Shown piece by piece: positions 584-32,000 of a stretch of 32,000 nucleotides of DNA. The notes below the pieces were generated by a model. That model ran no database searches and had not been told where the DNA came from. It was given only the letters and a program-made list of their open reading frames with translations. The DNA comes from Candidatus Thalassarchaeaceae archaeon (lineage in GTDB: Archaea; Thermoplasmatota; Poseidoniia; Poseidoniales; Thalassarchaeaceae). Within the stretch, counting starts at the first letter, position 1. Every line of letters starts with the position of its first letter. Location: positions 1,050,001 through 1,082,000 of the forward strand of contig JBJLBP010000001.1 in the NCBI GenBank assembly GCA_045568075.1, given 5' to 3'. The position numbers were made by a program, and so were the translations under genes.

Positions 584-677
584 GGTGTTCCCAACTGTTC
601 ACGGTCGCTGAAAGCCGCTTATACTTCGGGGTTGAACTCTTGTTCAATCCCGCCGAATGGCGAGGTAGAGTGCGATT

Positions 678-1260: not shown

Positions 1261-4200
1261 TCAGTCGTCCTTTCGGCGGCCTGCAAGGCCGACTCCGATT
1301 GCCGCTCCTAGGAGCGCCAGAGTCGAGATGATTCCTGTGAATCCAGGGACGTTCTCGCGGAAGTTGTCGAATCCTGTGTTGGTTTCAGTGTTGTCTCCAA
1401 CAACTGTCTCATCTACACTGTCATCGATTGCATCGCAGATTCCGTCTTGGTCGTAATCGACTGGAACGCTGTCTGCCTTCTCAGGGTTCGAACCGCACGC
1501 GTCCTCATCCTCATCGGAGTAAGTGTCGCCGTCGTCGTCGTCGTCGGCATTGTTACCGATTCCATCGCCGTCAGTGTCGATCCACTCGTTGATGTCGTAT
1601 GGGAACGCATCGCTAACGTCTGGTGAGCTGTCACCATCGTCGTCAGTGTCAGCATTGTCGCCAACTCCATCGCCGTCGTAGTCAGAAGTCTCCTGTGGGT
1701 TCAGCGGGAAGGCGTCGTCGACATCAGCGACTCCGTCGCCGTCATCGTCCTCATCGGTGTTGTCACCAATGCCATCTTCATCGCTGTCAATCCACTCAGT
1801 GGAATCCATTGGGAAGTCGTCGATTCCGTCATTCACACCGTCGCCATCGTCGTCAGCGTCAGAGTTGTCGCCCTGACCGTCGCCATCGCTATCCATCCAC
1901 TCGGATGGGTCCTCTGGGAACGCATCATCCACGTCAGCATAGCCATCGCCGTCGTCGTCGTCATCAGCATTGTTGCCGATTCCATCGCCGTCGTCGTCAG
2001 CCCACTCGCTTGAGTCTAGTGGGAATGGATCTGCAACGTCTGCAACACCGTCACCGTCGTCGTCTGGGTCCTTGTTGTCGCCCAGCATGTCGCCGTCGGT
2101 GTCATCCCACTCACTTGCGTCTAGTGGGAAGGCATCATTCGCATCTTCAACTCCGTCATCGTCGTCATCGGTGTCAGCATTATCGCCGGTTCCGTCGCCG
2201 TCGGTGTCGACCCACTCATTTGCATCGAATGGGAAGTCGTCTAGACCATCGGTCACGCCGTCATCGTCGTCGTCAGCATCAGCATTGTCGCCGGTTCCAT
2301 CGCCGTCGTTATCGGCGACTTCACTCGCATCGAGTGGGAACGCGTCAGTGTCGTCATCGACTCCGTCGTTGTCGTCGTCGCTGTCCATGATATCGCAGAT
2401 GTGGTCGCCCTCGAAGTCATCTGGTGTCGAATTAGCTACTAGCGGATCTGATCCACAGGTTGCCTCGTCGTCGTCACTCCAGGTGTCATCGTCGTCATCC
2501 TCGTCGAGGGTGTAGGCAGCTGGGTCACAAGGGGTGCCGTTCAAGTTGTTAGCACCTAGAGTGTCAGCCAGTCCATCACCATCGGTGTCGGTGCTGAGAC
2601 ATGGATCTAGTGGATCCAAGTCATCATCGTCGAGCACACCGTCGTTATCGTCGTCAGTGTCGAGGTTCGTGACATAGGTTGGCCACGAGACTGTGACGTC
2701 ATCAAGCCAGACTGTGTCTGCATTGCCATCGACGATTGAGTCCTTGAAGTAGACCCAGTGGAAGTCGTGGGTTCCTGCAGCAACATTGTGCGTGTAGGTT
2801 CCAGAAGTCAATCCGGACCAGCGAGCCACGTATCCTGACGTGCGAGTGCAACTTGTCGTGTCGACACAGAAGACTAGGAAGTCCCAGTTTCCTTCAGTCG
2901 ATACATCGTAAGCGAAGCTAATCGAAGCCATGTCGGCGATTCCGTCACCATCGGTGTCGGTGTCGTTGATCATGTTCCCTACGGTAGCAGACAGCCATGT
3001 GTCCTGACTTCCACCGATGTCTCCGCTCTCAGCCGAATACATTCCGCTGATGACATTCGTGCTCTGGACGAACCATAGAGCGTCACCCGAAGTTGACCAG
3101 AATCCGCCTATTGAGCCAGATTCGAAGTCTCCCTGGAATGCAGCAGGCGAGGTGTAATCCGCGATTCCGTCGCCATCAGTGTCGACAGACATTGTGCTGT
3201 CGAATGGGAAGGCGTCGTCTTCGTCGAGCACACCGTCGTTGTCGTCGTCTGGGTCAGCGTTGTCTCCAGCACCGTCACCATCGAAGTCGAAGCAATCGGC
3301 TGGGTCGTTCGGCAACTGGTCGACTGTGTCGTTGCAACCATCGTTGTCATCGTCGTCGTCAGCATTGTCGCCGATTCCGTCACCATCTGCATCAGAAGTC
3401 TCGGTCGGATCAAGTGGGAACTCGTCGTTGAGATCGTAGGTTCCGTCGTTGTCGTCATCAGTGTCTTGGATGTCACAATATCCGTCACCATCGCTGTCTA
3501 GGTATTCCGAAGCATCAAGCGGACAGTCGTCGTTAACGTCGAGCCATCCGTCGTTGTCGTCATCTGGGTCTGTGTCCAGACCGTCAGACTTGACCACCAC
3601 GTTGTCGAGGTATATCGCCTCTGAACCGGAGTTCGAAGCGAATTCGACAAGTAGGTATCCTGTGCCATCAACCTCGCCTGCGACTGTCGTCCAAACTCCC
3701 TCGTATGCTGGGAAGTCGGTGTCGATGTCGTAGCCGTTGGTGTCCAAGAGAACCGTTGTTGTGGTTCCAACCCAAGAGACTGTGATGTAATCAGAGGTCT
3801 CCCAGCCGGTGCTTGCAACGAATAGGTCGAGCGATACATGGTCTGCGTCAGATACTGATCCTGTCATCCACTGAATGATTCCGTCAGAGTCCGACATCTG
3901 GTATCCTTGGTCGCCGTCTGTGAAAGCACCGACAGTCGAGGCATAGTTAGTGACACCGAAGTAGTCACCATCAGTCAGACCATTGCTACCGGTCGAGATG
4001 TATGAAGCCGTGTAGCCGAGGTCACCAGGGGTTACTGTTGCAGAGAATCCAACCATCTGGTAGCTCGCACCGCCAGTGAATGGATCGGCATCCTGTGACC
4101 AAGTGTAAGTTCCAGCCTCAGTCCATGGACCCCATGTATTTCCACCATTGCTAGCCCAGGCAGTGTAGGAGTCACCGTCGTCAGCTGCCATCAGCAGGTG

Positions 4201-6354
4201 ACCAGATGGACCAGTCAGGGACATTGCGTGGTACGCGTAGGTGTAACCAGAGACGATGGAAGCAGACAGCGTCTCACCCTCAGCGAGAGTGAAGCTGCAG
4301 GTGAACGCGTATCCAGTTAATCCACCAGTCGTACAAGCGGTGTAGCTCGCCGAGTCGTAGTTGACTGAAGGTTCGCCAGCGTTGTTCGCTAGAGTGTGGT
4401 TAACCGACGAGTTACCTGTGTCGGTATACATTCCACTTGCACTAGCAGGCGCCTCGAAGGAGATTGTTCCAACGACTGCACCGCAGGAGTTGATTGCATC
4501 CTGACTGTCAGGCATGCCATCTCCGTCGGTATCGACGCTTGCACAGGCATTGTTCTGCCAAACGTCTGGGTTGTCGTTGACTCCATCGCCATCGTCGTCG
4601 TTATCGGCGTTGTCGCCGACTCCGTCGCCATCAAGGTCAGATGATTCTGTGTCGTCGTTCGGGAATGCATCGTTGATGTCCCAAACTCCGTCTCCGTCGT
4701 CATCGTCGTCGCGAACTAGAGTGCTGGTGCATCCTGCAACCAATGTGTCAGGCTTACCGTCGCTGTCTGAATCAGTGTCTGCACACTCGTCTAGTGAGAA
4801 TGCATCGTCGACATCTAATGTGCCGTCACCGTCATCATCAGTGTCAGCATTGTTACCAGTGCCGTCACTGTCTGTATCGACCCACTCATTGACATCATCA
4901 GGGAATACATCCGCAGTGTTGGCGTATGAGTCACCGTCGCGGTCACTGTCTAGTGCGTCACAGGTCAGATCTGCGTCAATGTCTCCTGGTGTGCTGGAGG
5001 AATCGAGTGGATCTGCTGTTGAAGCATAGGCGCCACCGTCGTCACAGTTGGTTGTTTCATCAAGATCTGTGTAACCGTCTGCGTCGTCATCGTAGTCGAG
5101 TAGAGTTCCGTAAGGCGTCACAGTAGCAGCAACTGTTCCAGTGATGTAGGTGTAGGAAGCCTGTACCCAGCAGACACCGTAGAATGAGGATGGGTTGCAT
5201 CCGTCACCATAGGAGTCGTAGTAGTAGATGGTGTACGAACCAGCAGTGGTCAATGTCGCGACTGCGTAATTACCACCGCTGCCGAATCCTGAGTATGAGG
5301 TACTCGTGCCAGATGGATCTGTAATGACCAAACCAGCCTCGCTTCCCCAACTACCTGTGTTCAGCGTGACATCTAGTGTCTCGCCAGCGGGCAGAGTGAA
5401 AGAGCACTCTGCGTCCTCGTAGCTGTTGATTGGGTTCGAGTTAGTGTCACTAGACTGAACCGCGATGTATCCGCCGACTGGCTGGTCTGGGTAGGTCGTG
5501 TAGGAAGTGCTGTACCAAGTCGAACCAGTGCAGAGTTGCACAGTCGAGGTAGATACCTGAGTTAGACTGTCGTGCAGCGTATCTGCAGCGCCATCACCAT
5601 CGGTGTCATTCCACGCGTGGGTGTCGAAGGCAAAGGCATCAGCAGTGTCGAGGTAACCATCGTTGTCATCGTCAGTGTCGACGTAGTCACAGAGGTTGGT
5701 AGCACCTGTTGCATCGCTTGGCAGAACTGAGTCGCCATCGTTGTCGCTTGGTGTGCTCGAAGCACTGTAACGGTCAGTCATACAGGCAATCTCGTAGACA
5801 TCGTCCCATCCGTCATTGTCGTAGTCCAGTGGGTATGTGTCATCGCCGTCTGGAGTGCCGTCGCCGTCGTCGTCAGAATCGTCGTTGTTTCCGATACCAT
5901 CGCCGTCGTCGTCTCGCCACTCGCTGGAGTCATCTGGAGCCCAGTCGTCAACGTCGTCAGTTCCGTCACCATCGTCGTCGGTGTCGGCGTTGTCGCCGGT
6001 TCCGTCGCCGTCGGTGTCAGTCGTCTCAGACGAGTCCAGTGGGAAGTCGTCGTAGGCGTCAAGGACACCATCGCCGTCATCGTCCGTGTCTTCGGTCAGA
6101 GTTGTAGTGCAACCGCTGACGATTGAGTCAGGCATTCCGTCTCCATCTGTGTCGACATTAGCACAAGCATCGGATGGGAAGGCATCTTCGTTGTCTCCCA
6201 TTCCGTCAGCGTCTGTGTCATCCCATTCTGATGCATCGAGTGGGAACTGATCGTTTAGATCATCATCACCGTCATCATCAGTGTCAGTGTCTAGTGGATC
6301 TGTTCCAGCTGTTGCCTCATCTGTGTCAGATACTCCGTCACCATCGTCATCCAA
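1261..6354 (-). CDS. C-terminal block of a giant Asp-rich surface protein: TSP3-like Ca-binding repeats, beta-rich lectin-like modules and a PGF-CTERM anchor
   Basis: 1697-aa track ORF in which Asp is by far the commonest residue. It has dozens of DxDxDGxGDNxDxDDDGDG loops (thrombospondin type-3-like). These are interrupted by non-acidic modules (AGSYTIYYYDSYGDGC; GDFESGSIGGFWSTSGDALW...WLDDVTVSW, jelly-roll/MAM-like by eye). It ends in PGF + TM + RRKDD. The track start is a TTG (6354..6352) and the frame stays open upstream to TAG 6415..6417. There is no signal peptide, so this is not a real N-terminus. Confidence 0.85.
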   Translation of the reverse strand: MDDDGDGVSDTDEATAGTDPLDTDTDDDGDDDLNDQFPLDASEWDDTDADGMGDNEDAFPSDACANVDTDGDGMPDSIVSGCTTTLTEDTDDDGDGVLDAYDDFPLDSSETTDTDGDGTGDNADTDDDGDGTDDVDDWAPDDSSEWRDDDGDGIGNNDDSDDDGDGTPDGDDTYPLDYDNDGWDDVYEIACMTDRYSASSTPSDNDGDSVLPSDATGATNLCDYVDTDDDNDGYLDTADAFAFDTHAWNDTDGDGAADTLHDSLTQVSTSTVQLCTGSTWYSTSYTTYPDQPVGGYIAVQSSDTNSNPINSYEDAECSFTLPAGETLDVTLNTGSWGSEAGLVITDPSGTSTSYSGFGSGGNYAVATLTTAGSYTIYYYDSYGDGCNPSSFYGVCWVQASYTYITGTVAATVTPYGTLLDYDDDADGYTDLDETTNCDDGGAYASTADPLDSSSTPGDIDADLTCDALDSDRDGDSYANTADVFPDDVNEWVDTDSDGTGNNADTDDDGDGTLDVDDAFSLDECADTDSDSDGKPDTLVAGCTSTLVRDDDDDGDGVWDINDAFPNDDTESSDLDGDGVGDNADNDDDGDGVNDNPDVWQNNACASVDTDGDGMPDSQDAINSCGAVVGTISFEAPASASGMYTDTGNSSVNHTLANNAGEPSVNYDSASYTACTTGGLTGYAFTCSFTLAEGETLSASIVSGYTYAYHAMSLTGPSGHLLMAADDGDSYTAWASNGGNTWGPWTEAGTYTWSQDADPFTGGASYQMVGFSATVTPGDLGYTASYISTGSNGLTDGDYFGVTNYASTVGAFTDGDQGYQMSDSDGIIQWMTGSVSDADHVSLDLFVASTGWETSDYITVSWVGTTTTVLLDTNGYDIDTDFPAYEGVWTTVAGEVDGTGYLLVEFASNSGSEAIYLDNVVVKSDGLDTDPDDDNDGWLDVNDDCPLDASEYLDSDGDGYCDIQDTDDDNDGTYDLNDEFPLDPTETSDADGDGIGDNADDDDDNDGCNDTVDQLPNDPADCFDFDGDGAGDNADPDDDNDGVLDEDDAFPFDSTMSVDTDGDGIADYTSPAAFQGDFESGSIGGFWSTSGDALWFVQSTNVISGMYSAESGDIGGSQDTWLSATVGNMINDTDTDGDGIADMASISFAYDVSTEGNWDFLVFCVDTTSCTRTSGYVARWSGLTSGTYTHNVAAGTHDFHWVYFKDSIVDGNADTVWLDDVTVSWPTYVTNLDTDDDNDGVLDDDDLDPLDPCLSTDTDGDGLADTLGANNLNGTPCDPAAYTLDEDDDDDTWSDDDEATCGSDPLVANSTPDDFEGDHICDIMDSDDDNDGVDDDTDAFPLDASEVADNDGDGTGDNADADDDDDGVTDGLDDFPFDANEWVDTDGDGTGDNADTDDDDDGVEDANDAFPLDASEWDDTDGDMLGDNKDPDDDGDGVADVADPFPLDSSEWADDDGDGIGNNADDDDDGDGYADVDDAFPEDPSEWMDSDGDGQGDNSDADDDGDGVNDGIDDFPMDSTEWIDSDEDGIGDNTDEDDDGDGVADVDDAFPLNPQETSDYDGDGVGDNADTDDDGDSSPDVSDAFPYDINEWIDTDGDGIGNNADDDDDGDTYSDEDEDACGSNPEKADSVPVDYDQDGICDAIDDSVDETVVGDNTETNTGFDNFRENVPGFTGIISTLALLGAAIGVGLAGRRKDD
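1264..1347 (-). other. PGF-CTERM-type archaeosortase (ArtA) sorting signal
   Basis: The last 28 codons are PGF-TGIISTLALLGAAIGVGLAG-RRKDD-stop: a Pro-Gly-Phe tripeptide (1339..1347), one hydrophobic helix, then a short basic cluster at the extreme C-terminus. This is the tripartite layout of the PGF-CTERM family. Confidence 0.65.
1505..2350 (-). repeat. 8 tandem 105-bp (35-aa) TSP3-like units
   Basis: Eight consecutive units of (D/A)FPxDxxEWxDxDGDGxGDNxDxDDDGDGxxDxxD, from DAFPLDASEVADNDGDGTGDNADADDDDDGVTDGLD to AFPYDINEWIDTDGDGIGNNADDDDDGDTYSDEDE. They are diverged at nucleotide level, so the array is old. Confidence 0.8.
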
Positions 6355-6694
6355 GTCAAGGACGGTTCCAGCAGCGCTGGACGGATGGTGTTGCTGTGTC
6401 GCATCGTTAGAGTGCTAATTGAGCGCTGTCTGTGCACCGTGCTCCACATGAACTCGAGTGTAGTGATGACCATATGAATCCTGCAGATGCTCAGGAGTAC
6501 GGTCGTGTAGATCGAGTACGTAGCCGAGCAACTAGTCTAGCGCGCCCTCGCTTCCGAGCAGTAGGAATAACCGTGTTGTGAATGACACAGCCTGAGCCTC
6601 CACTGGCAGGTAACTGTGCAGTTCCATGCTCTCACCGTCACCATAGACTGTCAGCGATTGTTAGACTCGAGACTCGGTAATGTGACTGAGACTG
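6355..6694 (-). pseudogene. degenerate coding remnant linking ORF 6695..7909 to ORF 1261..6354
   Basis: No intact ORF. The frame of ORF 1261..6354 read upstream gives QSLTVYGDGESMELHSYLPVEAQAVSFTTRLFLLLGSEGALD-TAG-LLGYVLDLHDRTPEHLQDSYGHHYTRVHVEHGAQTALN-TAG-HSNDATQQHHPSSAAGTVLDLDDDGDG. This resembles the intact modules TYGDGGMSISVEDTTPPANAIAMVSL (ORF 28518..30821) and DSYGDGCNPSSFYGVCWVQASYTYITGTVAATVTPYGTLLDYDDDADG (ORF 1261..6354) in sequence and spacing. In-frame stops lie at 6532..6534 and 6415..6417, and an apparent extra base at about 6646. Confidence 0.55.
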
Positions 6695-7909
6695 TCACAG
6701 TGGGAAGTCGTCTGCCAGTCCGTCACCATCGGTGTCGGTCCAGGCATCCACGTCATTGTCGAATGCATCCACATCGTCTGCGTAACCATCGTTGTCGTCG
6801 TCGGTGTCAGCGTTGTCGCCAGTTCCGTCGCCGTCGTAGTCAGTAGTCTCACTCGAGTCGAGTGGGAATGCATCACTTGTGTCAACAACTCCGTCGCCGT
6901 CGTCGTCATCGTCGAGCGTGTTGCAAGACATGTCGCCATCGGTGTCGGTTGGTGTGTCACTCGAGTCTAGAGGATCGTTGCTCTCTCCACAGTTGGTGCT
7001 CTCATCGTCGTCAGAGAATCCATCGCCGTCGTCGTCGGTGTCAGCATTGTTGCCGGTTCCGTCGCCGTCAGTGTCCAGAGTCTCAGCCGAGTCTAGTGGG
7101 AACGCATCGCTTGCGTCGTCCACACCGTCACCGTCGTCATCTGTGTCAGCATTGTTTCCAATGGTGTCACCGTCTGTGTCATCCCACTCGCTTGGGTTGT
7201 TAGGGAACTGATCGGTAGCATCTGGGTCTCCGTCGCCGTCATCATCTGTGTCGACGGTGTCTTCGATTCCGTCTCCGTCATCGTCGGAGTCAGCATTGTG
7301 TCCCCATCCGTCGCCATCAGCATCGTACTGCTCAGTCGAGTCTAGTGGGAAGTCATCATCAGTGTCTGCGACACCATCTGCGTCGTCATCAGTATCTTCG
7401 TTGTTACCGATACCATCAGAGTCAGTGTCAACCCACTCATCAGAGTCAGCTGGGAAAGCATCAGAGCTGTCAATCCAGCCGTCGCCGTCATCATCGGTGT
7501 CGGCGCTGTTGATTATGCCGTCTCCGTCTAGATCGCCGTCCGGGTTCAGTGTGACTGCGGAAGTTGCAGCGCTCGCTGGGATGACTGTCGAGGAATCGCC
7601 AGTCGCATCAGTGTGGACTACAGTTACAGTGTAGGTCTTACCGAGCACACTGCAAACCGCCGTGCTCTCGCACGATGGAATCGTGTATGTGCTCGAAGTT
7701 GCTCCGGAGATGTCTCCGTCAGCATCTGCCCACTGGTAAGCGAACGTGCCCATGCCGTCGTCGTCTGTTAGAAGACTGGTGTCTGCAGTCAGAACTTCGT
7801 CGTCATACGCGTCGCCAGATATCTGGATGTAGGTTGTTGCAATTGTTCCGTCCTCGATGACGATTGTAGCATAGTTACCACCGTCTCCGTAGCTATCAGT
7901 TACTACCAT
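6695..7909 (-). CDS. internal block of the giant surface protein: YGDGG module end, Ig-like YQW module, TSP3-like repeats
   Basis: 404-aa track ORF. It begins mid-module (MVVTDSYGDGGNYATIVIEDG) with no signal peptide. It contains GTFAYQWADADGDISGATSSTYTI (Ig-like YQW...GATSSTYT pattern), then about 8 TSP3-like units, and ends DGDGLADDFPL-TGA. Confidence 0.8.
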   Translation of the reverse strand: MVVTDSYGDGGNYATIVIEDGTIATTYIQISGDAYDDEVLTADTSLLTDDDGMGTFAYQWADADGDISGATSSTYTIPSCESTAVCSVLGKTYTVTVVHTDATGDSSTVIPASAATSAVTLNPDGDLDGDGIINSADTDDDGDGWIDSSDAFPADSDEWVDTDSDGIGNNEDTDDDADGVADTDDDFPLDSTEQYDADGDGWGHNADSDDDGDGIEDTVDTDDDGDGDPDATDQFPNNPSEWDDTDGDTIGNNADTDDDGDGVDDASDAFPLDSAETLDTDGDGTGNNADTDDDGDGFSDDDESTNCGESNDPLDSSDTPTDTDGDMSCNTLDDDDDGDGVVDTSDAFPLDSSETTDYDGDGTGDNADTDDDNDGYADDVDAFDNDVDAWTDTDGDGLADDFPL

Positions 7910-8085
7910 CAGAGTAAGTGCCTGCAGTGGTAATCAGCGTAGGAGTCCAGTGTAGTACCAGCCTGTAGCCCAAGCTGAAGCAGTGCCGTCAATCTATAGA
8001 CCACACTCGCTCGCGAGTAATCAGTCGTAGGTCAACGTAATCGTAGGCCCTCTGAAGGCTCGTGATGGTCAGACTGTAGGTGCTA
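7910..8085 (-). pseudogene. frame-scrambled remnant of a YGDGG-type module
   Basis: Pieces of one module lie in alternating minus-strand frames: STYSLTITSLQRAYDYVDLRLITRE / IDGTASAWATGWYYTG / TLITTAGTY / LMVVTDSYGDGGNYATIVIEDG. There is an in-frame TGA at 7989..7991. Joined, they parallel GSFSIMSGSTAEVTYTCDYWCPYETSVDIDKPDGTTDSWAVGS...TDAGTYTVTMEDTYGDGGMSISVED of ORF 28518..30821. Confidence 0.55.
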
Positions 8086-8325
8086 CTATCCGATCCAGTA
8101 GTTCGCTACAGTGCTGTCAGCTGGAGGACTGGCGTCCATGGTGAACCATCGCCGACTAGTGCACTGGCATCCTTCTGTTGCATCATTCGTGTTGACAACA
8201 GTTAGAGTGAACGTGTCAGTCACTGATCCGGCTGTAGTAGCGTCATCAGTTGCAGTTACAACCACAGTGTAGACACCAACATCTGCATTGACTGGAGTTC
8301 CTGAAATCACACCAGCTGAAGACAT
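8086..8325 (-). CDS. fragment of giant adhesin: He_PIG / dystroglycan-type cadherin-like Ig domain
   Basis: SSAGVISGTPVNADVGVYTVVVTATDDATTAGSVTDTFTLTVVNTNDA is the C-terminal two-thirds of a He_PIG-type domain. Its first third (DGMTYSATGLP) lies in the preceding ORF in another frame, and the coding frame really extends up to about 8340 (ATLTMSSAGVISGTP). After NTNDA the translation turns implausible (TEGCQCTSRRWF) and ends in a TAG-TAG double stop (8083..8088). Confidence 0.7.
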   Translation of the reverse strand: MSSAGVISGTPVNADVGVYTVVVTATDDATTAGSVTDTFTLTVVNTNDATEGCQCTSRRWFTMDASPPADSTVANYWIG

Positions 8326-24022: not shown

Positions 24023-25260
24023 GCCTCAGCATCGTTAAGTGAATCCAGGTCGTTATCAACATCGGAAGGGGTGTAGACCCAACCACCGGTTGCCTCGGTT
24101 AGAACCCAACTTCCGTAGGTATCGGTTAGTGTCTGAGTGTCTCCTGCATCAGTACAACCTACACACGACCAGGTTGGTGTGTCGCCAGTATCGGCATCAG
24201 TAACTACGAGAGTATCGGAAACAGTACCGCCAGCATCTTCTGTATACGCACCAGTATTGTCGGAATTCGCAATTACTGGGTCATCGTTAGAGTTGGCTAC
24301 AGTAACTGTAGCTGCAATCGAAACAGTTACGGAGTCGTCGCCCGCACCAGTAGTGCCGCCGTTATCCTTCAGAGTGGTGATTGTTACCACACGGTTGTTG
24401 GCAACTGATGGTGAGTCGTCTGTGTTCTTGTAGGCTAGAGCATTGATTAGAGTCTCCATCAAAGCCTCAGAGATTCCCTCGCCATCGCCAGTCCATGTGA
24501 GTGTTGCAGTAGTACTGTCCATGGTAACTACAGCAGCACCGGAGTTAGTTGCAGTGTTAGCTACACAAGTAGCAGCAGCAGTGATGTCACAGTCTGAGCC
24601 ATCGATAACGATGTACTCTTCCTCGTCCACAACATTTGTGATAGTAATCACAATTGCCTCGTAAGTCTGAACTACTTGTGAATCGGAATCAGTAGCAGCA
24701 GCACTAGAGAAAAGTGCGAAATTTGATCCGCCTTCAGTGAACGTGCCTGATGCCCCGGTTGCAGAAAGGGTAGGCTCGTCGTTCACTTGAGTAACAGAAA
24801 TGGTGTATGAAGCCTGAACAGTTTCACCGCCAGAGACACCCTGGATGGTTATTGCAGTTCCACCAGTTACATGAGCATCAGTAGGAGTTCCAGTGATGGT
24901 TGCAGTAGAATCACTGTTGTCCGTAAAAGTCATCCAAGAATGACAGGAAGTGCATGATAGAACAACAGTGGTCCCATCAGGATCGTTCCACTGTACCGTC
25001 GAGCTATAGGCGACGTCTTCGGTGGAGGAGGTCGTCGGTGTTGTGACGGCGAATGGCGGCACAAACCTAGCATCTTGAGTATCTTCAAGAGCGCTAACGC
25101 TAGCGCTACCGCTATCGAAGATTTGGCCTGCAACTAGGATGAGTGTGATCGCTGCGGCAAGGCCGATTGCGACGTTCCTTAGGTCATTCGATGTCAGGTT
25201 CTTCTGGTTTGTATGGCTCACTGTAGTGAGCGGCACGGCTGCAACCATGTTGGTTCCCAC
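24004..25260 (-). CDS. N-terminal fragment of giant adhesin with signal/anchor helix
   Basis: 418-aa track ORF. The track start is GTG 25260 and an ATG lies at 25248 (MVAAVPLTTVSH...). A single N-terminal hydrophobic helix follows a basic residue: R-NVAIGLAAAITLILVAGQIF (25117..25173). Then come beta-rich modules and a VCBS-like unit (TYGSWVLTEATGGWVYTPSDVDNDLDSLNDAEA) cut short by a frame break. It is the only export signal upstream of 1261. Confidence 0.85.
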   Translation of the reverse strand: MGTNMVAAVPLTTVSHTNQKNLTSNDLRNVAIGLAAAITLILVAGQIFDSGSASVSALEDTQDARFVPPFAVTTPTTSSTEDVAYSSTVQWNDPDGTTVVLSCTSCHSWMTFTDNSDSTATITGTPTDAHVTGGTAITIQGVSGGETVQASYTISVTQVNDEPTLSATGASGTFTEGGSNFALFSSAAATDSDSQVVQTYEAIVITITNVVDEEEYIVIDGSDCDITAAATCVANTATNSGAAVVTMDSTTATLTWTGDGEGISEALMETLINALAYKNTDDSPSVANNRVVTITTLKDNGGTTGAGDDSVTVSIAATVTVANSNDDPVIANSDNTGAYTEDAGGTVSDTLVVTDADTGDTPTWSCVGCTDAGDTQTLTDTYGSWVLTEATGGWVYTPSDVDNDLDSLNDAEACHKKQ

Positions 25261-25271
25261 GTCTTTCTTGC

Positions 25272-25306
25272 ATTTAGAAGGTTACGGTACCCACCCTATA
25301 GGGTGG
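25272..25306 (-). promoter_or_regulatory. candidate promoter of the giant gene: perfect 16-bp palindrome plus TATA-like box
   Basis: The minus strand reads CCACCCTATAGGGTGG (25306..25291), then 11 nt, then TTCTAAAT (25279..25272), then 23 nt, then ATG 25248. The TATA-like centre sits about 27 nt from the ATG, which fits a leaderless or near-leaderless archaeal mRNA. Confidence 0.4.
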
Positions 25307-25847
25307 AGCATTCTATATGAGGCCGATAATCAAAATTGATTCGAGGCAGAATTGCCTCTATGTGTCCCTTTTTGCAGATTTTAACACTTGAATACAGCAC
25401 AACACCACCGCTCAACAACCGCACTACTGAAGTCTTGTCGTGCAACGTTTTTGACACTTGTTTTCGCGCCGTCTGCAGACAGCTGTGAAGTTGCATTAAG
25501 ACGGCCATTTGTTCATTATTATCAGAACTCGAATTAATGCCGCCAGAGACAATTTGAAGAACTCCCAATTCAAAGAAGAATGACTAGGCAGATCTGCCTG
25601 TCTCACCTAGAAATCAATGATTTCACTGATTAGACAAAAATCCAATCGTTTCACCCATGGATTTTCCAATCGTTCTTTATAAGCAACAAGGGGCAATTAT
25701 CGACTCTTTTTCACTAGAAGTAGGGGGTATTTGGACGCGCATAATGACAGAATTCGATGTTTAACTTACACCGATCGGTCAAAGAAAGGAGTATTGGTTA
25801 CTACCGAATTCGAGTGAATCCGGTTTGAGAAAGATGTGGCCGGAGAT

Positions 25848-25871
25848 CCGAGGCCCCGTTTGGGGCCCCGG
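25848..25871 (-). terminator. GC-rich hairpin 35 nt downstream of the stop at 25907 (candidate terminator or 3'-end structure)
   Basis: GGCCCC (25852..25857), loop GTTT, GGGGCC (25862..25867). CCG/CGG extends the stem across one mismatch. Confidence 0.3.
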
Positions 25872-25906
25872 AAATCCGGTTACGTTTGTCGAGTTAGACT
25901 ACCTAA

Positions 25907-28588
25907 TCAGGCGTCAATCTCTTCTTCTTCGACGTCCTCGAATTCCTCGTCTTCTTCGTCGAGGAATTGCTCGGTCTCGTCATACAGGTCGAACTCGTCA
26001 CTGTCTTCGTCCTTACCGCCAGCGGTGCGGGCGATTAGAGCGATTACTGCGATTAGAACAACTGCGATTCCGATGAACGGCGCAGGTTCTGCACTGATAT
26101 CGTCAAGGATTCCTAGTGGGTTTCCATTGTCACCCTGTCCGTCGTTGTTACCATCGTACTGCTCAGTTGGGTCCCACGGGAAGTGGTCCTCCCAGTCTTC
26201 ACAGCTGGTGCAAACTCCGTTCGCATCGAGAACGTATGTTGCCGGATCTGGGACACCATCGTTGTCATCGTCTGGGTCAATCGCGTTGCAGAGTCCGTCG
26301 CCGACGACCATGTCGTCATCGGTGCCGTATTCTCCATCTGGACCGACGTCGGTCTCGTTGTCGATTGGCATGACGTTGGCGTTGTTCGGGTCTCCCTGTC
26401 CGTTCAGAGCGTTGCGGCAGATCAGCTCAGTAGTGTCGAGCCAGCCATCGCCGTCATCATCGATGTCGGCGTTGTCACCAGTTCCGTCACCATCTAGGTC
26501 ACGGTTCTCGTTCGGATTCATTGGGAAGGCGTCATCGAGGTCGAGGTATCCGTCGTTGTCATCATCCTGGTCGGTGATGTCACAGTCGTGATCCATATCG
26601 TTGTCCGCAGGCACGGAGGTGTGATCCATTGGATCTGTGCCACAGTTAGGCTCCTCGTTATCCATCCAGCCGTCGTTATCGTCGTCGGAGTCTGAGAAGT
26701 CACCAATTCCGTCGCCGTCATTGTCAGCGTTTTCTGTCGCATCGAATGGGAAGGCATCCAGAGTATCTGGAGTTCCGTCGCCGTCATCGTCGGTGTCGAC
26801 CTTGTCGCAGATCATGTCGCCATCGTAGTCGTCAGGGACTGAGTCAGCGTCCAGTGCGTCACTTCCGCACTCGAACTCCTCAGCATCCGTCCAGGCGTCA
26901 CCGTCGTCGTTGAGGTCAGCGTTGTCGCCAACTCCGTCGCCGTCAGTGTCAATCCACTCAGACTGGTCGTATGGGAACGCGTCGAGCTCATCGAGCCAAA
27001 GGTCGTTGTCGTCGTCAGTGTCGGCGTTATCGCCAATTCCGTCTCCATCAAAGTCAGCCCACTCAGAAGGATCGATTGGGAAGACATCGTCTGCATTCAG
27101 GACTCCGTCACCATCGACGTCGTCGTCGATTGTGTCACAGATTCCGTCCAAATCAAGATCCAGCGGAATCGATGAGACCTCGAATGGGTCCGAGGCGCAC
27201 TCTATCTCGATTTCGTCGAAGTAGCCGTCGTTGTCATCGTCAGGATCAGCGTTGTCACCGATTCTGTCGTTGTCGTTGTCAGCCCACTCGGTCGCGTTGA
27301 ACGGGAAGGCATCCTCGTCATCCATGTAGCCGTCGTTGTCGTCATCCATATCGACGAGGTCACAAAGTGTGTCGTTGTCGAAGTCGGTTGGATACGAGTC
27401 GGCGTCCATTGGGTCGGTGACACAATCTGCCTCAGCAGAGTTGTTCCATCCATCTCCATCAAGATCAGTATCGCTATTGTCACCTAGTCCGTCACCATCA
27501 GTATCGGTAGTTTCGTTCCCATCGAATGGGAAGTCATCTTCTGAATCGATAACGCCATCTCCGTCGCTATCCGTGTCGAGTGAATCACAGATTCCATCTC
27601 CATCGGTGTCGCTTGGGAAGCTGTTACCATCGTTCGGATCAGTACCACACATATTCTCCATTGCAGTGTGCCAGCCGTCACCGTCTGGGTCAAGCGAATA
27701 GAACTGAATCGTGATGTTGTAGTCTGTTCCAGTAGTATCGTAGATGTAATTCCTCACGATGAAGTAAACTGTATCTCCACCATAGTAAGTAGTGGTTGCA
27801 GAGGCGTTCCAAACTTGAGGGTTAGTGTAGCCTGCAAATCCAACCTGACTTTGTGCTGAATTGTAGACATACAATAGATACCAAACTGATGGGGTATTGT
27901 AACCTGGATCGAGTGTGATCTCAAATCCATGGTCAACTGGAACAATGAAGTTGTACCAATCTTGGTCATCTAGACCCGCAGCAGCCCATCCTCCGTATTC
28001 GTAGGTATTGTTCGCAGTGATGTTGTTGTAAGCTGCGATATCTACTGAAGACCCGAAGGAAGAACCGGCATCTCCACCACTGTTTGCATCATCCTGGTCT
28101 CCACCTGGTAGATCCGACAGATTTCCGTAGGTGATGTCCAGCTGGTAGTCCATGTCAGTTACACCATAGGAATAAATTCCGAAGGTTACCCAATGTCCAC
28201 CCACAGGCCATAATCCTGAATGAGCTGTCTTTGGGAAGCTCTGAGCTTGTCCGTAAGCCGATGTGTCTACGTAGTATGCAGGGTTCGCAGGATAGACACA
28301 TTGCATATTCCAGTTACCGCACATATACATGTATGTGTAGACGTATGCGTTACCATTTGCAGCACTCAGATCTGGGAAGGATGTTGTGATGTTGACGTAC
28401 TTTCCAGTAGGAACCAAGATTTGGTAGTAATCGCGCTGATCCCATGTGTTATCGAACCAGCCAGTGCAAGTTCCACCAGTGTCATTCGCATCGCCATTGA
28501 TGTCGGCTTGATTCGAATTATTGACGAATGATGGGCCGGCATCCCATGTAGCTGAGTAGATGACTGTCACCAGCGTCGGTACCAGCAC
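25907..28588 (-). CDS. C-terminal fragment of second surface mega-protein: PPC-like modules, TSP3-like repeats, TM anchor, acidic tail
   Basis: 893-aa track ORF. The start is a GTG assigned by the track and there is no signal peptide. It has PPC-like modules (DQRDYYQILVPTGKYVNITTSF; DDQDWYNFIVPVDHGFEITLDPGY), then about 12 TSP3-like units with CxxDPxDxxSxP linkers. The TM helix is PFIGIAVVLIAVIALIA (26030..26080), followed by the 40-aa tail RTAGGKDEDSDEFDLYDETEQFLDEEDEEFEDVEEEEIDA. Confidence 0.85.
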   Translation of the reverse strand: MLVPTLVTVIYSATWDAGPSFVNNSNQADINGDANDTGGTCTGWFDNTWDQRDYYQILVPTGKYVNITTSFPDLSAANGNAYVYTYMYMCGNWNMQCVYPANPAYYVDTSAYGQAQSFPKTAHSGLWPVGGHWVTFGIYSYGVTDMDYQLDITYGNLSDLPGGDQDDANSGGDAGSSFGSSVDIAAYNNITANNTYEYGGWAAAGLDDQDWYNFIVPVDHGFEITLDPGYNTPSVWYLLYVYNSAQSQVGFAGYTNPQVWNASATTTYYGGDTVYFIVRNYIYDTTGTDYNITIQFYSLDPDGDGWHTAMENMCGTDPNDGNSFPSDTDGDGICDSLDTDSDGDGVIDSEDDFPFDGNETTDTDGDGLGDNSDTDLDGDGWNNSAEADCVTDPMDADSYPTDFDNDTLCDLVDMDDDNDGYMDDEDAFPFNATEWADNDNDRIGDNADPDDDNDGYFDEIEIECASDPFEVSSIPLDLDLDGICDTIDDDVDGDGVLNADDVFPIDPSEWADFDGDGIGDNADTDDDNDLWLDELDAFPYDQSEWIDTDGDGVGDNADLNDDGDAWTDAEEFECGSDALDADSVPDDYDGDMICDKVDTDDDGDGTPDTLDAFPFDATENADNDGDGIGDFSDSDDDNDGWMDNEEPNCGTDPMDHTSVPADNDMDHDCDITDQDDDNDGYLDLDDAFPMNPNENRDLDGDGTGDNADIDDDGDGWLDTTELICRNALNGQGDPNNANVMPIDNETDVGPDGEYGTDDDMVVGDGLCNAIDPDDDNDGVPDPATYVLDANGVCTSCEDWEDHFPWDPTEQYDGNNDGQGDNGNPLGILDDISAEPAPFIGIAVVLIAVIALIARTAGGKDEDSDEFDLYDETEQFLDEEDEEFEDVEEEEIDA

Positions 28589-30821
28589 CGCAGTCGTTCG
28601 GGTTCGAACCAGGCTCGTTAGCCGGTGTAATCATTGTCAGATTCATCCAGTAGATTCCGCCGCCAATATCTGTAAACACGCGTATGTAGAGGTCTTGGCC
28701 GCCGTTGGAATAGGTTGCCCACATTGTCTCAGGATTATCGTAGTAAGATGAGTCAATGAAGTACAAGTAGGTGGATGCCGGATTCTTGTAGTACAGACCG
28801 GTATCAATATCGTGCCCACCAGGGAATGATACCTCAACCTTGAGACCGTAATTCTGTGGCAAGTAAATCTTGTAGTAATCATAACGATCATCCGTATCGT
28901 GACCGTATCCGACATAACTGCCATTCATCGATGGTAAGTCAAGTGCATCATATCCATATGTGCTGTTACCACCATCATCACCAGTTCCGGCATCGTCCCA
29001 TGGACCATCCCATCCTGCTGATTGATCGTAAGTGGTGTAATCGATTGTGTAATTAGTCTCGACATCTTCTACCAAATCACGGACTAAGAGCTTGATGTAA
29101 ACAGTAGTCTCTTGACTGAGATAGTTGTTGAAGTAATACGATTCATTGGTCGACATACCCTTGGGGTTCAGTGTGTATGGGTAGTTGTTCTGGGCCAAGT
29201 AGGACCAGTATCCATCCATGTAGAGGAATGCGTCAATTGCTTCTGAGCCCTCAGGTTGGTCGAATGTTAGAACAAACCAGAATCCTTCATCGGGTGCTAG
29301 TGTGTAAGAATACCAATCCTCATCATCGTATCCATCACAGATGGTTCCAGTGAATGCTCCGGATGAGCCCAAACTGGTGATGTTCGTAGCCGAAGTCTGG
29401 AGATCTCCAGCGTCGGTTCCGGATCCGCCATCATCAGCAACAGAACATGGTGGTGGAACTGCAGGCGCAAGCTGCAATTGCAGCGAATAGCCAGCGTGAG
29501 TGTCTGTGCTGTAATAAGCGTAGTAACTTACCTTAACGAATGCAGTAGCGCCTTCGAAGGAAGTTCCGAGATCAATGAACTCAGGCTGATTATACCACGA
29601 ATAGTCAACCATCGTTGTGAAGCCCGCGTCAGAGTAGACCTCGAGATCCAGGTCGGCATTCTTGTTCCAATCCAGCGTCAGGTTGGCTGCGTATCCGGTT
29701 GGGATATGCACAGCGAAGTAATCTGCCGTATCCGTTTGATTGACGTGCCCACCAGTGGAGACATCAAGATTGAACGCGTCACCAGTAAGTGAGACCATTG
29801 CAATCGCATTGGCTGGTGGAGTAGTATCTTCTACAGATATTGACATTCCACCGTCGCCGTATGTGTCTTCCATCGTGACGGTATAGGTTCCAGCATCAGT
29901 GTAAGTAGCAAGTGTTCCTGAGGAATAAGCAGCGAGCGAGCCAACTGCCCAAGAGTCAGTCGTTCCATCTGGCTTGTCGATATCAACAGAAGTTTCGTAT
30001 GGGCACCAGTAATCGCAGGTATAGGTTACCTCTGCAGTGCTTCCAGACATGATTGAGAAAGAACCTGAGGCATAATCTCCATTCGGATATGAATCGAACT
30101 CCAAAGATAGGAGTGCATTAGCATCAGGCGAGTCTGACCAATCTCCTGGAAATCCATTATCTGCAGGGAATGTTGTGATGTTCATGTGGTAATCAGGGAT
30201 GCTGGCGTAGCCACAGTAGTAGCACCAGACCCATAGCAGAACTTCTTGGCCACCGAGGGCGCGAGACTGTCCTCCTAGACTGTTGTAGTTTCCAATGCAG
30301 GTACCATCAGAACCGATTCCGACTTGGCCTGAAGTGCTGTAGTAGCAGTAACCCCACGAGTTGCCCGAATATGTGGAGTAGCCTGACATGGAAGCAGGCC
30401 CGTATGCTGCCATGTATGCGTAGTTGTCATAGAAAGATCCTGTGCCCGACATGTTCCACTCGAGAGTGTATCTAACTCCGTAGCCAGGTTCCATATCTAC
30501 AAGGAAAACATCAATGTTAGTTGTTGATGTAGAAGAGTAACCTGTCGCTTGCATGGTATTCCAGTAATCGACAGATTCCGGTCCGTCCTCCCACTCGAAA
30601 TCAGAAGTGATATCCATCGCTCCTGAATAACCGACGCCTGCGTCGGTTCCTCGACAGGCATCTGCGCCTTGACAAGGTGATGGAGCTGCTTCCATCCTCA
30701 GGCTGTTATCTTGTAATTCGGCCTTCTCCTCTGCTACGCTAATCACAGGTAGAACGCTCATTGTTATCATCATTAATGCTAGCACTATTGTTCGGGCTGT
30801 CTTGCTTCGCATGGTCATCAC
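28518..30821 (-). CDS. N-terminal fragment of second surface mega-protein: Sec signal peptide, PPC-like modules, YGDGG module
   Basis: 767-aa track ORF with GTG 30821 / ATG 30818. The signal peptide is MMTMRSKTARTIVLALMMITMSVLPVISVA-EEK (30732..30821). There are four complete PPC-like modules (TDTADYFAVHIPTGYAANLTLDW...DLDLEVYSD; DDEDWYSYTLAPDEGFWFVLTF; DDRYDYYKIYLPQNYGLKVEVSF; ESVDYWNT) and one YGDGG module (AGTYTVTMEDTYGDGGMSISVED). A fifth PPC-like module starts NDCGAGTDAGDS and then goes off-frame. Confidence 0.85.
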   Translation of the reverse strand: MMTMRSKTARTIVLALMMITMSVLPVISVAEEKAELQDNSLRMEAAPSPCQGADACRGTDAGVGYSGAMDITSDFEWEDGPESVDYWNTMQATGYSSTSTTNIDVFLVDMEPGYGVRYTLEWNMSGTGSFYDNYAYMAAYGPASMSGYSTYSGNSWGYCYYSTSGQVGIGSDGTCIGNYNSLGGQSRALGGQEVLLWVWCYYCGYASIPDYHMNITTFPADNGFPGDWSDSPDANALLSLEFDSYPNGDYASGSFSIMSGSTAEVTYTCDYWCPYETSVDIDKPDGTTDSWAVGSLAAYSSGTLATYTDAGTYTVTMEDTYGDGGMSISVEDTTPPANAIAMVSLTGDAFNLDVSTGGHVNQTDTADYFAVHIPTGYAANLTLDWNKNADLDLEVYSDAGFTTMVDYSWYNQPEFIDLGTSFEGATAFVKVSYYAYYSTDTHAGYSLQLQLAPAVPPPCSVADDGGSGTDAGDLQTSATNITSLGSSGAFTGTICDGYDDEDWYSYTLAPDEGFWFVLTFDQPEGSEAIDAFLYMDGYWSYLAQNNYPYTLNPKGMSTNESYYFNNYLSQETTVYIKLLVRDLVEDVETNYTIDYTTYDQSAGWDGPWDDAGTGDDGGNSTYGYDALDLPSMNGSYVGYGHDTDDRYDYYKIYLPQNYGLKVEVSFPGGHDIDTGLYYKNPASTYLYFIDSSYYDNPETMWATYSNGGQDLYIRVFTDIGGGIYWMNLTMITPANEPGSNPNDCGAGTDAGDSHLLSYMGCRPIIRQ

Positions 30822-30844
30822 TGTCGCTAATCACACTATGTTAG

Positions 30845-30891
30845 TGATATAATCATGTCGTCCCCTGTTCGTCCAACCCCCTATGGGGTTG
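30845..30891 (-). promoter_or_regulatory. candidate promoter of the second mega-gene: GC-armed hairpin palindrome plus TATA-like box
   Basis: The minus strand reads CAACCCC-ATAG-GGGGTTG (30891..30874), then 21 nt, then TTATATCA (30852..30845), then 23 nt, then GTG 30821 (ATG 30818). TATA-to-start geometry matches the giant gene, and the palindrome arms resemble CCACCC/GGGTGG at 25291..25306. Confidence 0.4.
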
Positions 30892-30947
30892 TGAAAGAAA
30901 GATGAGCATATTCACTACTGTCTGATGGGGTTTGGAGTTTATTTGTT

Positions 30948-31036
30948 AAAAAAATACCAATTTAAGGAAAAAAATATTCTAAATCAGCCATTTCAAAAAA
31001 AAATAGGCTCAGAGGACAATCATGACTAGTATGATT
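30948..31036 (-). terminator. hairpin plus three oligo-T runs downstream of the 31087 stop (archaeal-type terminator region)
   Basis: On the minus strand: stop at 31087, then hairpin AATCAT-ACTAGTC-ATGATT (31036..31018). After 14 nt comes T9 (31003..30995), then T7 (30974..30968) and T7 (30954..30948). Oligo-T tracts are the established archaeal termination signal. Confidence 0.6.
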
Positions 31037-31086
31037 CAGGAACGCTCATTCTAGCAAGGCCAGAATATTTCTGAGAGTAGTTCAGT

Positions 31087-32000
31087 TCAGAATCCAGGAG
31101 GTGGTGGTGGAATTTGTGAATCATCGTTGTCTGTATCGGGTTCACTACCAAACCCTGGTGGAGGAGGAGGCACTTCTGAATCGCTTGGTGCCATTACTTC
31201 TTCAAATCCAGGTGGTGCAGGTGGCACCTCCGATACCTCTTCGCTCTCAGCCTCAAATCCAGGGGGCGGAGGAGGGACTTCTTCCGAGTTGTCTTCGACC
31301 ACTTCATCCTCAAATCCAGGGGGCGGAGGAGGGACTTCTTCCGAGTTGTCTTCGACCACTTCATCCTCAAATCCAGGCGGTGCTGGAGGAATCTCAGAAT
31401 CTTCGCTTGGCTCATATTCTGCCCACGACTCAGTATCATCGTAGGATGAATACTGATCGTCGCCATAAGTTGCAGCCTCGTCATCCTTCTTGCGGACTAA
31501 CACGACCGCAGCCGTAGCTCCGATTGCAGCCAGAATCAGGATGAACACTAATGCCGTTAATCCCGGGTTGAGCTTCATGTGGTCGACAATAGATAGTGGG
31601 TGAGCATTGTCTCCAAGTCCGTCACTATTGCGATCTTCCCACTCAGTACCATCCTTAGGATAGACATCATTGACGTCAGGAACACCATCACCATCGTCGT
31701 CAGGATCGACGGCGTCACAGGTGCCATCTGCGTCTGTATCCAATGGCACTGAATTCGCAGATAGGCTGTCAGTACCGCACATTTGCTCTGCGTTGTCAGT
31801 CCAATCGTCGTTGTCGTCATCGATGTCAGCGTTGTTTCCTTGGCCGTCACCATCAGTGTCAGACCATTCATTTCCATTGAATGGGAATGCGTCGTCAACA
31901 TCTTGCACCTGATCGTTATCATCATCGATGTCGATGATGTCACAGAGCATATCCTGATCATTGTCCAGAGGGACACTGTTTGCATCAAGAGGATCTGAGC
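31087..32000 (-). CDS. 3' part of a third TSP3-repeat surface protein: TM anchor and 135-aa Pro-rich/acidic cytoplasmic tail (gene continues beyond the right edge)
   Basis: The track ORF is 31087..31950, but the frame is open to 32000 (SDPLDANSVPLDNDQD-MLCDIIDIDDDNDQVQD...). It has TSP3-like units, then NPGL-TALVFILILAAIGATAAVVLV-RKKDD (TM 31495..31560). The tail carries six [IV]PP[AP]PPGF motifs and ends exactly at ...IPPPPPGF-stop. Confidence 0.85.
   Translation of the reverse strand, partial: SDPLDANSVPLDNDQDMLCDIIDIDDDNDQVQDVDDAFPFNGNEWSDTDGDGQGNNADIDDDNDDWTDNAEQMCGTDSLSANSVPLDTDADGTCDAVDPDDDGDGVPDVNDVYPKDGTEWEDRNSDGLGDNAHPLSIVDHMKLNPGLTALVFILILAAIGATAAVVLVRKKDDEAATYGDDQYSSYDDTESWAEYEPSEDSEIPPAPPGFEDEVVEDNSEEVPPPPPGFEDEVVEDNSEEVPPPPPGFEAESEEVSEVPPAPPGFEEVMAPSDSEVPPPPPGFGSEPDTDNDDSQIPPPPPGF
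31254..31367 (-). repeat. perfect tandem duplication, 2 x 57 bp (19 aa: EVPPPPPGFEDEVVEDNSE)
   Basis: 31254..31310 is identical to 31311..31367 (caaatccagggggcggaggagggacttcttccgagttgtcttcgaccacttcatcct). A third copy diverges after 10 nt. Confidence 0.95.

Follow-up and report, generated by a model that had tools for sequence, protein, structure and literature searches.

A conserved block of three giant surface-protein genes with thrombospondin type 3 repeats in marine group IIb archaea

The 32,000-nucleotide (nt) stretch of DNA analyzed here (the window) lies on a 1,598,520-bp contig in a metagenome-assembled genome (MAG) of marine group IIb (Ca. Thalassarchaeaceae) and carries three neighboring genes for large predicted surface proteins, here called genes 1, 2, and 3. 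A map of stop-free stretches placed every open reading frame (ORF) of >250 amino acids (aa) in 1261-32000 on the minus strand and resolved the three genes: gene 1 runs from its ATG at 25248 down to a stop at 1261, gene 2 from 30821 to 25907, and gene 3 from beyond 32000 to a stop at 31087. Non-coding spacers part gene 1 from gene 2 (646 nt; 25249-25906) and gene 2 from gene 3 (265 nt; 30822-31086), so that a preliminary description of this DNA, which had reported three co-oriented neighbors, was right on this point. All features of the three genes and their spacers given below are on the minus strand. The block is real and conserved, and its one truly unusual element is its cytoplasmic tails.

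Tandem DxDxDGxxDxxD Ca-binding loops of thrombospondin type 3 (TSP3) repeats are present in all three genes, always between the head and the membrane helix. The motif DxDxDGxx[DN] occurs 46 times in 1264-6414 and 14 times in 6698-7933 of gene 1, 17 times in gene 2, and 3 times in the 303-codon fragment of gene 3 that falls within the window. After shuffling of residues, the mean counts were 0.75 and 0.36 for the two parts of gene 1, 0.23 for gene 2, and 0.03 for gene 3, and no shuffle gave more than 5. The proposed common Ca-binding, TSP3-like chemistry is thus borne out, with 60, 17, and 3 motifs vs. an expectation of <1. The repeat unit is ~35 aa long, and Tandem Repeats Finder (TRF) detected a 105-nt period at 1525-2310. 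With Pfam TSP3_bac, gene 1 scored 25.2 bits (cut-off 25) and P0008, an orthologue of gene 3, scored 31.8; neither gene 2 nor the gene 3 fragment gave a Pfam TSP3 match, probably because of the correction for composition bias. The thrombospondin-3 part of the NCBIfam model MtsC (NF047638) gave partial matches to all three genes (E=1e-20 to 1e-22), with E=1e-21 for gene 1 and E=3e-20 for gene 2. The term "stalk" used in the preliminary description suits this region in part: a membrane-proximal TSP3 region is found in all three genes, but that of gene 1 is broken up by globular domains and is not a plain stalk.

Gene 1 (1261-25248), pieced together from stop-free blocks and junction translations, would encode a giant surface protein of ~8000 aa if repaired. 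Its start, ATGGTTGCA, and leader are conserved with the distant locus L008, and a hydrophobic segment that reads as a signal or signal-anchor (VAIGLAAAITLILVAGQIF; 25117-25173) lies ~25 aa after the start. The distal head (16065-24025) is a mix of Cadherin_4, Big_9, He_PIG, Cadherin_5, tandem-95, and VCBS immunoglobulin-like (Ig-like) domains. Pfam and NCBIfam scores for gene 1 were above the curated cut-offs, reaching 420 bits (seven stretches) and 102 bits for VCBS (TIGR01965; cut-off 15.5), 126 bits for Cadherin_4, 137 for Big_9, 66 for He_PIG, 62 for Cadherin, and 139 for tandem-95, which confirms the VCBS/cadherin/He_PIG head described previously. Nearer the membrane lie a cadherin-type tandem array with 15 copies of a 315-nt unit at 93% identity (11317-16064; TRF and the 62-bit Cadherin match) and a VCBS array with 6.3 copies of a 324-nt unit at 95% identity (8592-10613; TRF and the 420-bit TIGR01965 match).

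Gene 1 has five TSP3 blocks, identified by motif counts against shuffles and by the TSP3_bac and partial MtsC matches. One of these, with 14 motifs, is at 6710-7534, and the other four, with 46 motifs, make up the membrane-proximal region (1432-6351) together with globular inserts. The inserts are two YGDGG-type beta domains, a 300-aa domain, and a 160-aa jelly roll. A YGDGG beta domain at 5152-5454 is of the same type as that of gene 2 (alignment A8). The jelly roll (GDFESG...WLDDVTV; 2665-3153) is CBM/MAM-like in its AlphaFold2 (AF2) model, which has a predicted local distance difference test (pLDDT) score of 64; in Foldseek the model resembles CBM61, CBM4, CBM22, MAM, and the gingipain K1 adhesin with template modeling (TM) scores of 0.45-0.54. 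A homologue search found this domain conserved in P0010-P0017, all of the matches being fragments of <500 aa, one of which (P0010) carries the PGF tail described next.

At its C-terminus (1264-1347), gene 1 encodes Pro-Gly-Phe (PGF), a hydrophobic helix, and GRRKDD, ending NVPGFTGIISTLALLGAAIGVGLAGRRKDD. This arrangement, with a basic cluster at the extreme C-terminus, fits the visual definition of PGF-CTERM, and the form [NA][LV]PGF[TP]-helix-GRR[KNR]xD does not vary among 27 metagenomic orthologues and P0010. The PGF-CTERM hidden Markov models (HMMs; TIGR04126/Pfam) gave no match to the tail at E<=10, although HMMER filters may drop very weak ones, and the one match in NCBIfam and Pfam was a weak one to PEP-CTERM (12 bits). 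Among 815 ORFs (window plus L001-L032), which are a small part of any genome, gene 1 alone had a PGF-helix-basic tail, and our literature searches returned no paper that links archaeosortase or PGF-CTERM with marine group II. The prediction of a PGF-CTERM lipid anchor therefore stands as to the tail and its conservation in orthologues and fails as to the curated HMMs; judged by its residues, the tail may be a lipid anchor.

Gene 2 (25907-30821) encodes a surface protein of 1637 aa once a single extra base is removed, in line with orthologues of 1636-1790 aa; the NCBI annotation (ACJZ5A_04795, hypothetical protein, 100% identical) covers only the first 764 aa. A signal peptide is followed by a ~200-aa domain rich in Cys and aromatic residues, a YGDGG domain (29814-30113; alignment A8), a beta module, and four modules of ~130-170 aa (27640-29459), three of which open with D-D-x-G-S-G-x-D-A-G. 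We searched the Protein Data Bank (PDB) with a profile (A7) of 12 modules from gene 2 and its orthologue copies. The profile matched the collagen-binding domains of ColG/ColH (5iku, 7.9e-8; 1nqd, 1.9e-6; 1nqj and 4hpk, ~2e-6) and the C-terminal jelly roll of the Thermococcus subtilisin Tk-SP (3afg, 1.4e-6). One module of P0008 also passed the Pfam PPC cut-off (28.5 vs. 25.9), while those of the window pass only within the profile and not singly. Together, the profile matches and the P0008 module support the label "PPC-like", and the head of PPC-like modules plus YGDGG that had been proposed for gene 2 was found as described. The structure model of the head was poor (pLDDT 52), with only the YGDGG domain modeled confidently (pLDDT 78-89), and the fold search gave generic multi-jelly-roll matches, with 5iku at rank 3. 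We attribute the shallow, poor model to the alignment-based homologue search, which yielded only 9 proteins.

Below the gene 2 head lie the TSP3 region (17 motifs and the partial MtsC match; 26246-27610), a transmembrane helix (26030-26086), and a 40-aa acidic-aromatic cytoplasmic tail (25910-26029), the last two just as the preliminary description had them. The tail contains D-L-Y-D-E-T-E-Q-F, and the motif D-x-Y-(T/DE)-(D/E)-E-(Q)-F was kept in 13 of the 14 species with a complete gene 2, down to ~40% head identity, so that the tail held up when its conservation was checked.

Gene 3 is represented in the window by its C-terminal 303 codons only (31087-32000). From its orthologues P0089 and P0008 we infer a full protein of ~1318-1335 aa; P0089 is 1318 aa long and is almost the same as the window gene over its final 300 aa. 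As read from these two orthologues, the part beyond the window comprises a signal peptide and five PPC-like modules, then the TSP3 region. Within the window, the transmembrane helix (31495-31551) and a 135-aa cytoplasmic tail (31090-31551 for the two together) were found, in agreement with the polyproline tail proposed. This tail has six PPxPPGF motifs, the last one at the C-terminus, and a 57-nt tandem repeat. As in genes 1 and 2, basic residues directly follow the single C-terminal hydrophobic helix.

Conservation of the gene 3 tail was partial. PPPPPGF-type repeats recur in 3-6 copies in the window clade and a second clade, and several further clades have one or two PPxPPG[FL] copies together with PPMPE-type repeats and a ~40-aa W-rich module; other clades have short, W-containing acidic tails instead of the repeats. 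The W-rich module (SWEDLPPGGDY...GTWV...D.SW, or SWEELPEGEWLPNDENGVNWY...) directly follows the proline-rich repeats in Thalassarchaeaceae-type orthologues and is carried by L008-L011, L014, L025, L027, L029, P0009, and P0092, as well as L090, L096, and L100. We considered whether this module is a WW domain, but hhalign of 12 modules against 8 WW domains gave a probability of 1.9%, and Pfam gave nothing significant. A search with the polyproline tail among 1.84 billion representatives returned 12 matches, namely the gene 3 family and unrelated PPxPPGY-repeat proteins. Since only the gene 3 family carries this tail, it is not a general archaeal tail; literature searches on archaeal polyproline tails gave nothing relevant.

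Neither gene 1 nor gene 2 is uninterrupted in this copy. The preliminary description missed the frame breaks. Gene 1 is not one ORF and shows at least nine frame changes, at ~24010, 23800, 14300, 10700, and 8330 and, several each, in two short messy stretches at 7930-8130 and 6414-6698, the latter with two apparent in-frame stops. A He_PIG domain is cut at ~8330, and each half matches half of the Pfam model. In gene 2, one base is inserted in GGTGACA[G]TCATCTAC (28556-28571), where blastn showed a 1-nt gap vs. L001, L003, L005, and L006; the metagenomic proteins P0002 (95% identical) and P0003 (75%) read through this position, and orthologous gene 1 ORFs run uninterrupted for 1945-2495 aa to the contig or locus edge. 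If these breaks were real, genes 1 and 2 would be decaying pseudogenes and this strain would have no functional block. The number of frame changes in gene 1, the crowding of several of them within 200 nt at 7930-8130, the two apparent stops, and the location of the gene 2 insertion outside any homopolymer all point that way. However, the changes examined are indels across which the domains continue, apart from the two apparent stops, the repeats remain 93-95% identical, and close relatives are intact, including the 95% identical gene 2. Furthermore, the window comes from a single 1.6-Mb MAG contig that we take as a probable long-read assembly, and indel errors are common in such assemblies where DNA is repetitive and compositionally biased. 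Because the breaks behave as indels, the domains continue, and the repeats are so well preserved, we attribute the breaks probably to assembly or sequencing error rather than to decay; pseudogenes, whose decay may then have set in very recently, are the less likely explanation, albeit one to be taken seriously.

We compared the block across 30 related genome loci, each of which belongs to a Poseidoniales (marine group II) MAG. A membrane-anchored S8 protease comes first, followed by 3HCDH, gene 3, gene 2, and a giant downstream gene; gene 3 immediately precedes gene 2 in ~27 of the 30 species, and of the 10 loci with enough sequence beyond gene 2, 9 have a giant gene there on the same strand. 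Loss of synteny in relatives had been named as one finding that would overturn the proposal, and the comparison came out in its favor. The other flank is marked by archaeal aIF5A (678-1064 in the window, downstream of gene 1; Pfam/NCBIfam scan), and a scan anchored on this gene found a giant PGF-tailed TSP3 gene 96-180 nt upstream of it in 27 of 80 metagenomic loci. The same backbone in more distant Poseidoniales is either free of giant genes or has a gene 3-like gene only. With 0, 1, or 3 giant genes in a constant backbone, the 3HCDH-aIF5A locus is, in terms of gene content, a variable hot spot in which gene 3 is, by the same comparison, the old member, gene 2 its duplicate, and gene 1 an addition. 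The shared PPC-like modules make genes 2 and 3 paralogues in their heads (gene 3 head vs. gene 2 profile, E=8.7e-57), so that the earlier statement "not three redundant paralogues" holds only in part. The S8 peptidase (PPC domain, 1600-2100 aa) is two genes upstream of gene 3 in relatives (L001, 2487-8858; L003-L020) and has a C-terminal helix anchor, which in the window clade is followed by a conserved 90-aa acidic cytoplasmic tail ending EEELRAWARGERDV.DWRERIPDDDVIDLD.

Most of the related MAG contigs (L003-L032 and L033-L067) stop inside gene 2 or gene 1. Since most short-read contigs end in these genes, assemblies of Poseidoniales genomes break systematically at this locus.

Between relatives that share 94-95% identity in aIF5A, the heads share only 23-45%, a fast divergence of the kind typical of adhesins. 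This bears on whether the three proteins could be structural envelope proteins, forming the main S-layer-like or glycocalyx-like coat rather than acting as adhesins. A coat of this kind would agree with a single conserved locus across the family, with ectodomains that are very large, acidic, and Ca-binding, and with the PGF-type tail of gene 1, which resembles that of the Haloferax S-layer glycoprotein. Yet heads that diverge this fast, and arrays that differ between close relatives, are unexpected for a lattice-forming protein; the locus holds 0 or 1 such gene in other Poseidoniales, and the domains are adhesin-like (VCBS, cadherin, and a partial match to BapA/LapF). We therefore think it quite improbable that the proteins form the coat.

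Hypervariable heads on a conserved stalk and anchor would also be expected of receptors for cell-cell recognition or cohesion, whose polymorphic heads would let a cell recognize kin or partners, in the manner of Myxococcus TraA/TraB or MtsC. TSP3 repeats are present in TraB, and MtsC was the best NCBIfam match for all three genes. That match is, however, far under the cut-off (77 vs. 350 bits) and comes from the TSP3 repeats alone, the archaeal proteins have no MYXO-CTERM, and marine group IIb tends toward a free-living lifestyle (PMC8821943), all of which makes recognition receptors a long shot.

The spacers carry signals that bear on how the genes are expressed. A nested GC hairpin (25840-25879) immediately follows the gene 2 stop and resembles a terminator or a stability element; aligned with four relatives (alignments A5/A6), it has 15 pairs with compensatory changes at 4, and T8-9 comes next in L007 and L008. 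Reading of the sequence also showed a T-run downstream of the gene 3 stop (30994-31003), followed by two more, and a GC-rich hairpin just 3' of the gene 1 stop (1207-1239). Upstream of the gene 1 start, ~90 nt (25245-25345) are conserved with L008, whose gene 2 head is ~45% identical to that of the window; the stretch includes the palindrome ACCCTATAGGGT and GATTATCGGCC.CATAT and may be a promoter or leader element, with a conserved leader or promoter-proximal part at 25293-25331. The hairpin with compensatory changes and the T-runs argue for separate transcription rather than one operon, and the pattern fits three separate transcription units. The earlier wording, a Ca-dependent adhesion or matrix "system", is accordingly half apt: adhesion fits the domain content, but the terminator-like elements point to independent units.

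These signals weigh on the idea of a coupled, three-part adhesion or matrix system in which the proteins would act jointly and each tail would connect the cell exterior with its own cytoplasmic machine, by outside-in or inside-out coupling. Gene order held across ~27 species, the gene 2 tail motif in 13 of 14 species, PPxPPG[FL] repeats in several clades, and the conserved 90-aa cytoplasmic tail on the neighboring S8 protease of the window clade would all be expected of such a system. Against it stand the terminator-like elements between the genes, the paralogy of genes 2 and 3, and the equal synteny of the flanking backbone genes, given which linkage need not mean coupling. Moreover, the gene 3 tail is swapped for unrelated tails in other clades, the polyproline tail, with its 12 matches, has no partner-like family, and the W-rich module is not a WW domain. 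On balance we find a coupled system unlikely. Similarly doubtful is that the tails (PPxPPGF, D-Y-T-E-E-F, and the acidic tail of the S8 protease) dock the receptors to a cytoplasmic partner in an integrin- or cadherin-like coupling; we know of no actin-type cytoskeleton in this euryarchaeon. The tails are, by their conservation, sufficiently constrained to be functional. Proline-rich repeats and the W-rich module on the same orthologue tail would fit a ligand-and-reader pair that clusters receptors.

Together, these results lead us to a reading that we consider probable, namely that the locus is a conserved block of three separately transcribed, giant type I surface proteins for parallel, Ca2+-dependent attachment. 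Each protein would be exported via its N-terminal signal, with one C-terminal hydrophobic helix holding it in the membrane. Gene 1 would display dozens of VCBS, cadherin, and Ig-like repeats plus the YGDGG and jelly-roll inserts, and genes 2 and 3 would each display 4-5 distal PPC/collagen-binding-domain-like beta-sandwich modules. Next to the membrane, the acidic TSP3 region would become rigid only with Ca2+ bound; Ca2+ is plentiful in sea water. The proteins would attach, in a Ca2+-dependent manner, to particles, polymers, or other cells, and the three genes would provide different binding specificities in parallel without forming one complex. Inside the cell, the conserved tails would act as short linear motifs that dock or cluster something. 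We infer adhesion from the families to which the domains belong and from how fast the heads diverge. The PPC/collagen-binding-like modules, together with the anchored S8 protease and an oligopeptide transporter next to aIF5A, suggest a link to protein capture and degradation, so that attachment would serve the protein-degrading lifestyle of the group.

Several points weigh against this reading. The Ca2+ dependence and the adhesion role are drawn from domain analogy, confidence in the head models is low (pLDDT 52 for gene 2 and 64 for the gene 1 jelly roll), and Pfam, NCBIfam, and PDB sequence searches assigned no family to the YGDGG domain, the 300-aa insert of gene 1, or the N-terminal 230 aa of gene 2. 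No cytoplasmic partner for the tails was found, which makes the "distinct intracellular couplings" of the preliminary description pure conjecture. The protease and transporter context is weak, as L033-L036 do not conserve the transporter, and 3HCDH and aIF5A lie in between. Finally, the frameshifts, if real, would leave this strain with dead copies of genes 1 and 2.

Directly downstream of aIF5A lies the N-terminus of the transporter, of the OPT family (2-598, minus strand); in the closest metagenomic relatives (L033-L036), other genes take its place. The flanking genes, which occupy 1.2 kb of the window, have intact reading frames, and Rfam and tRNA scans of the window found no RNA genes. Between 11000 and 23000, the GC skew is positive and strong (0.1-0.2) and GC content is 57-60% vs. 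47-50% in the flanks, which we attribute to the coding of Thr/Ala/Asp/Gly-rich repeats on the minus strand rather than to a foreign origin. Plus-strand ORFs at 1623-2390, 1970-2515, 18646-19528, 22991-23635, and 25836-26591 lie opposite repeat DNA and look like antisense artefacts, a call based on the translations of those at 1623-2390 and 25836-26591, which are of low complexity and Arg/His-rich or Ser-rich.

Marine group II, which has never been cultured, is one of the most abundant archaeal groups of the surface ocean, and how its members come into contact with particles, algae, or each other has been inferred from gene lists only. The locus offers a recognizable, conserved set of surface proteins with defined heads, stalk, and anchors that could be used as targets for metaproteomics, antibodies, and heterologous expression, and it explains an assembly problem, since short-read MAGs of the group break here. 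Conserved cytoplasmic motifs on single-pass surface proteins are, to our knowledge, rare in prokaryotes, and the tails, if they are true docking motifs, would be a possible link between surface binding and the cell interior.

How does the block compare with what is known? Thrombospondin genes are widespread in Ca. Poseidoniales and have been read as adhesion genes by Rinke et al. (2019; PMC6461757), who, in the parts consulted, score them as present or absent across genera only. The preliminary description knew of no characterized archaeal system of this design. This is true in so far as the literature that we found, including the parts of PMC6461757 consulted, contains no description of the three-gene block, its 3HCDH-aIF5A position, its anchors, or its cytoplasmic tails, but TSP3 adhesion genes of marine group II as such have been published in that paper.

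Several better-known proteins resemble single parts of the block. With cadherin and integrin receptors it shares the logic of a Ca-dependent ectodomain, a single-pass helix, and a short cytoplasmic tail; this is analogy only, and we know of no catenin-, talin-, or profilin-like partner in this archaeal group. The type 3 repeats of thrombospondin and COMP have the same DxDxDGxxDxxD chemistry, with homology confined to the repeats. The modules of genes 2 and 3 match by profile the Ca-binding beta-sandwiches of clostridial collagenase collagen-binding domains and protease PPC domains; whereas the enzymes have one or two copies at their end, genes 2 and 3 have 4-5 tandem copies on a non-catalytic, membrane-anchored protein. 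The C-terminus of gene 1 has the same PGF-helix-basic layout as PGF-CTERM/archaeosortase A substrates such as the Haloferax volcanii S-layer glycoprotein, but the HMMs do not match it. The likeness to Myxococcus MtsC and TraA/TraB lies in TSP3 repeats, a C-terminal anchor signal, and a variable head; these proteins belong, however, to another domain of life, the archaeal tails lack the Cys-containing MYXO-CTERM, and the MtsC (NF047638) scores of 77, 72, and 18 bits vs. a cut-off of 350 come from the repeats only, which places the archaeal proteins outside that family.

A further parallel is found among the bacterial giant adhesins BapA/Bap/LapF, SiiE, and Marinomonas MpIBP, which have near-identical tandem Ig-like/VCBS/cadherin repeats over several thousand residues, made rigid by Ca2+, and carry ligand-binding modules at the far end, and which the archaeal proteins resemble in how they work. 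The C-termini of the archaeal proteins are membrane helices and the BapA/LapF model scored 90 vs. 180 bits, so that they do not belong to the RTX adhesins of type I secretion systems. Whereas the bacterial adhesins leave the cell by type I secretion, directed by an RTX signal at the C-terminus, and are held by an N-terminal outer-membrane plug, a pattern absent here, the archaeal block combines an N-terminal Sec-type signal, a TSP3 region, and a C-terminal membrane helix in a single-membrane archaeon.

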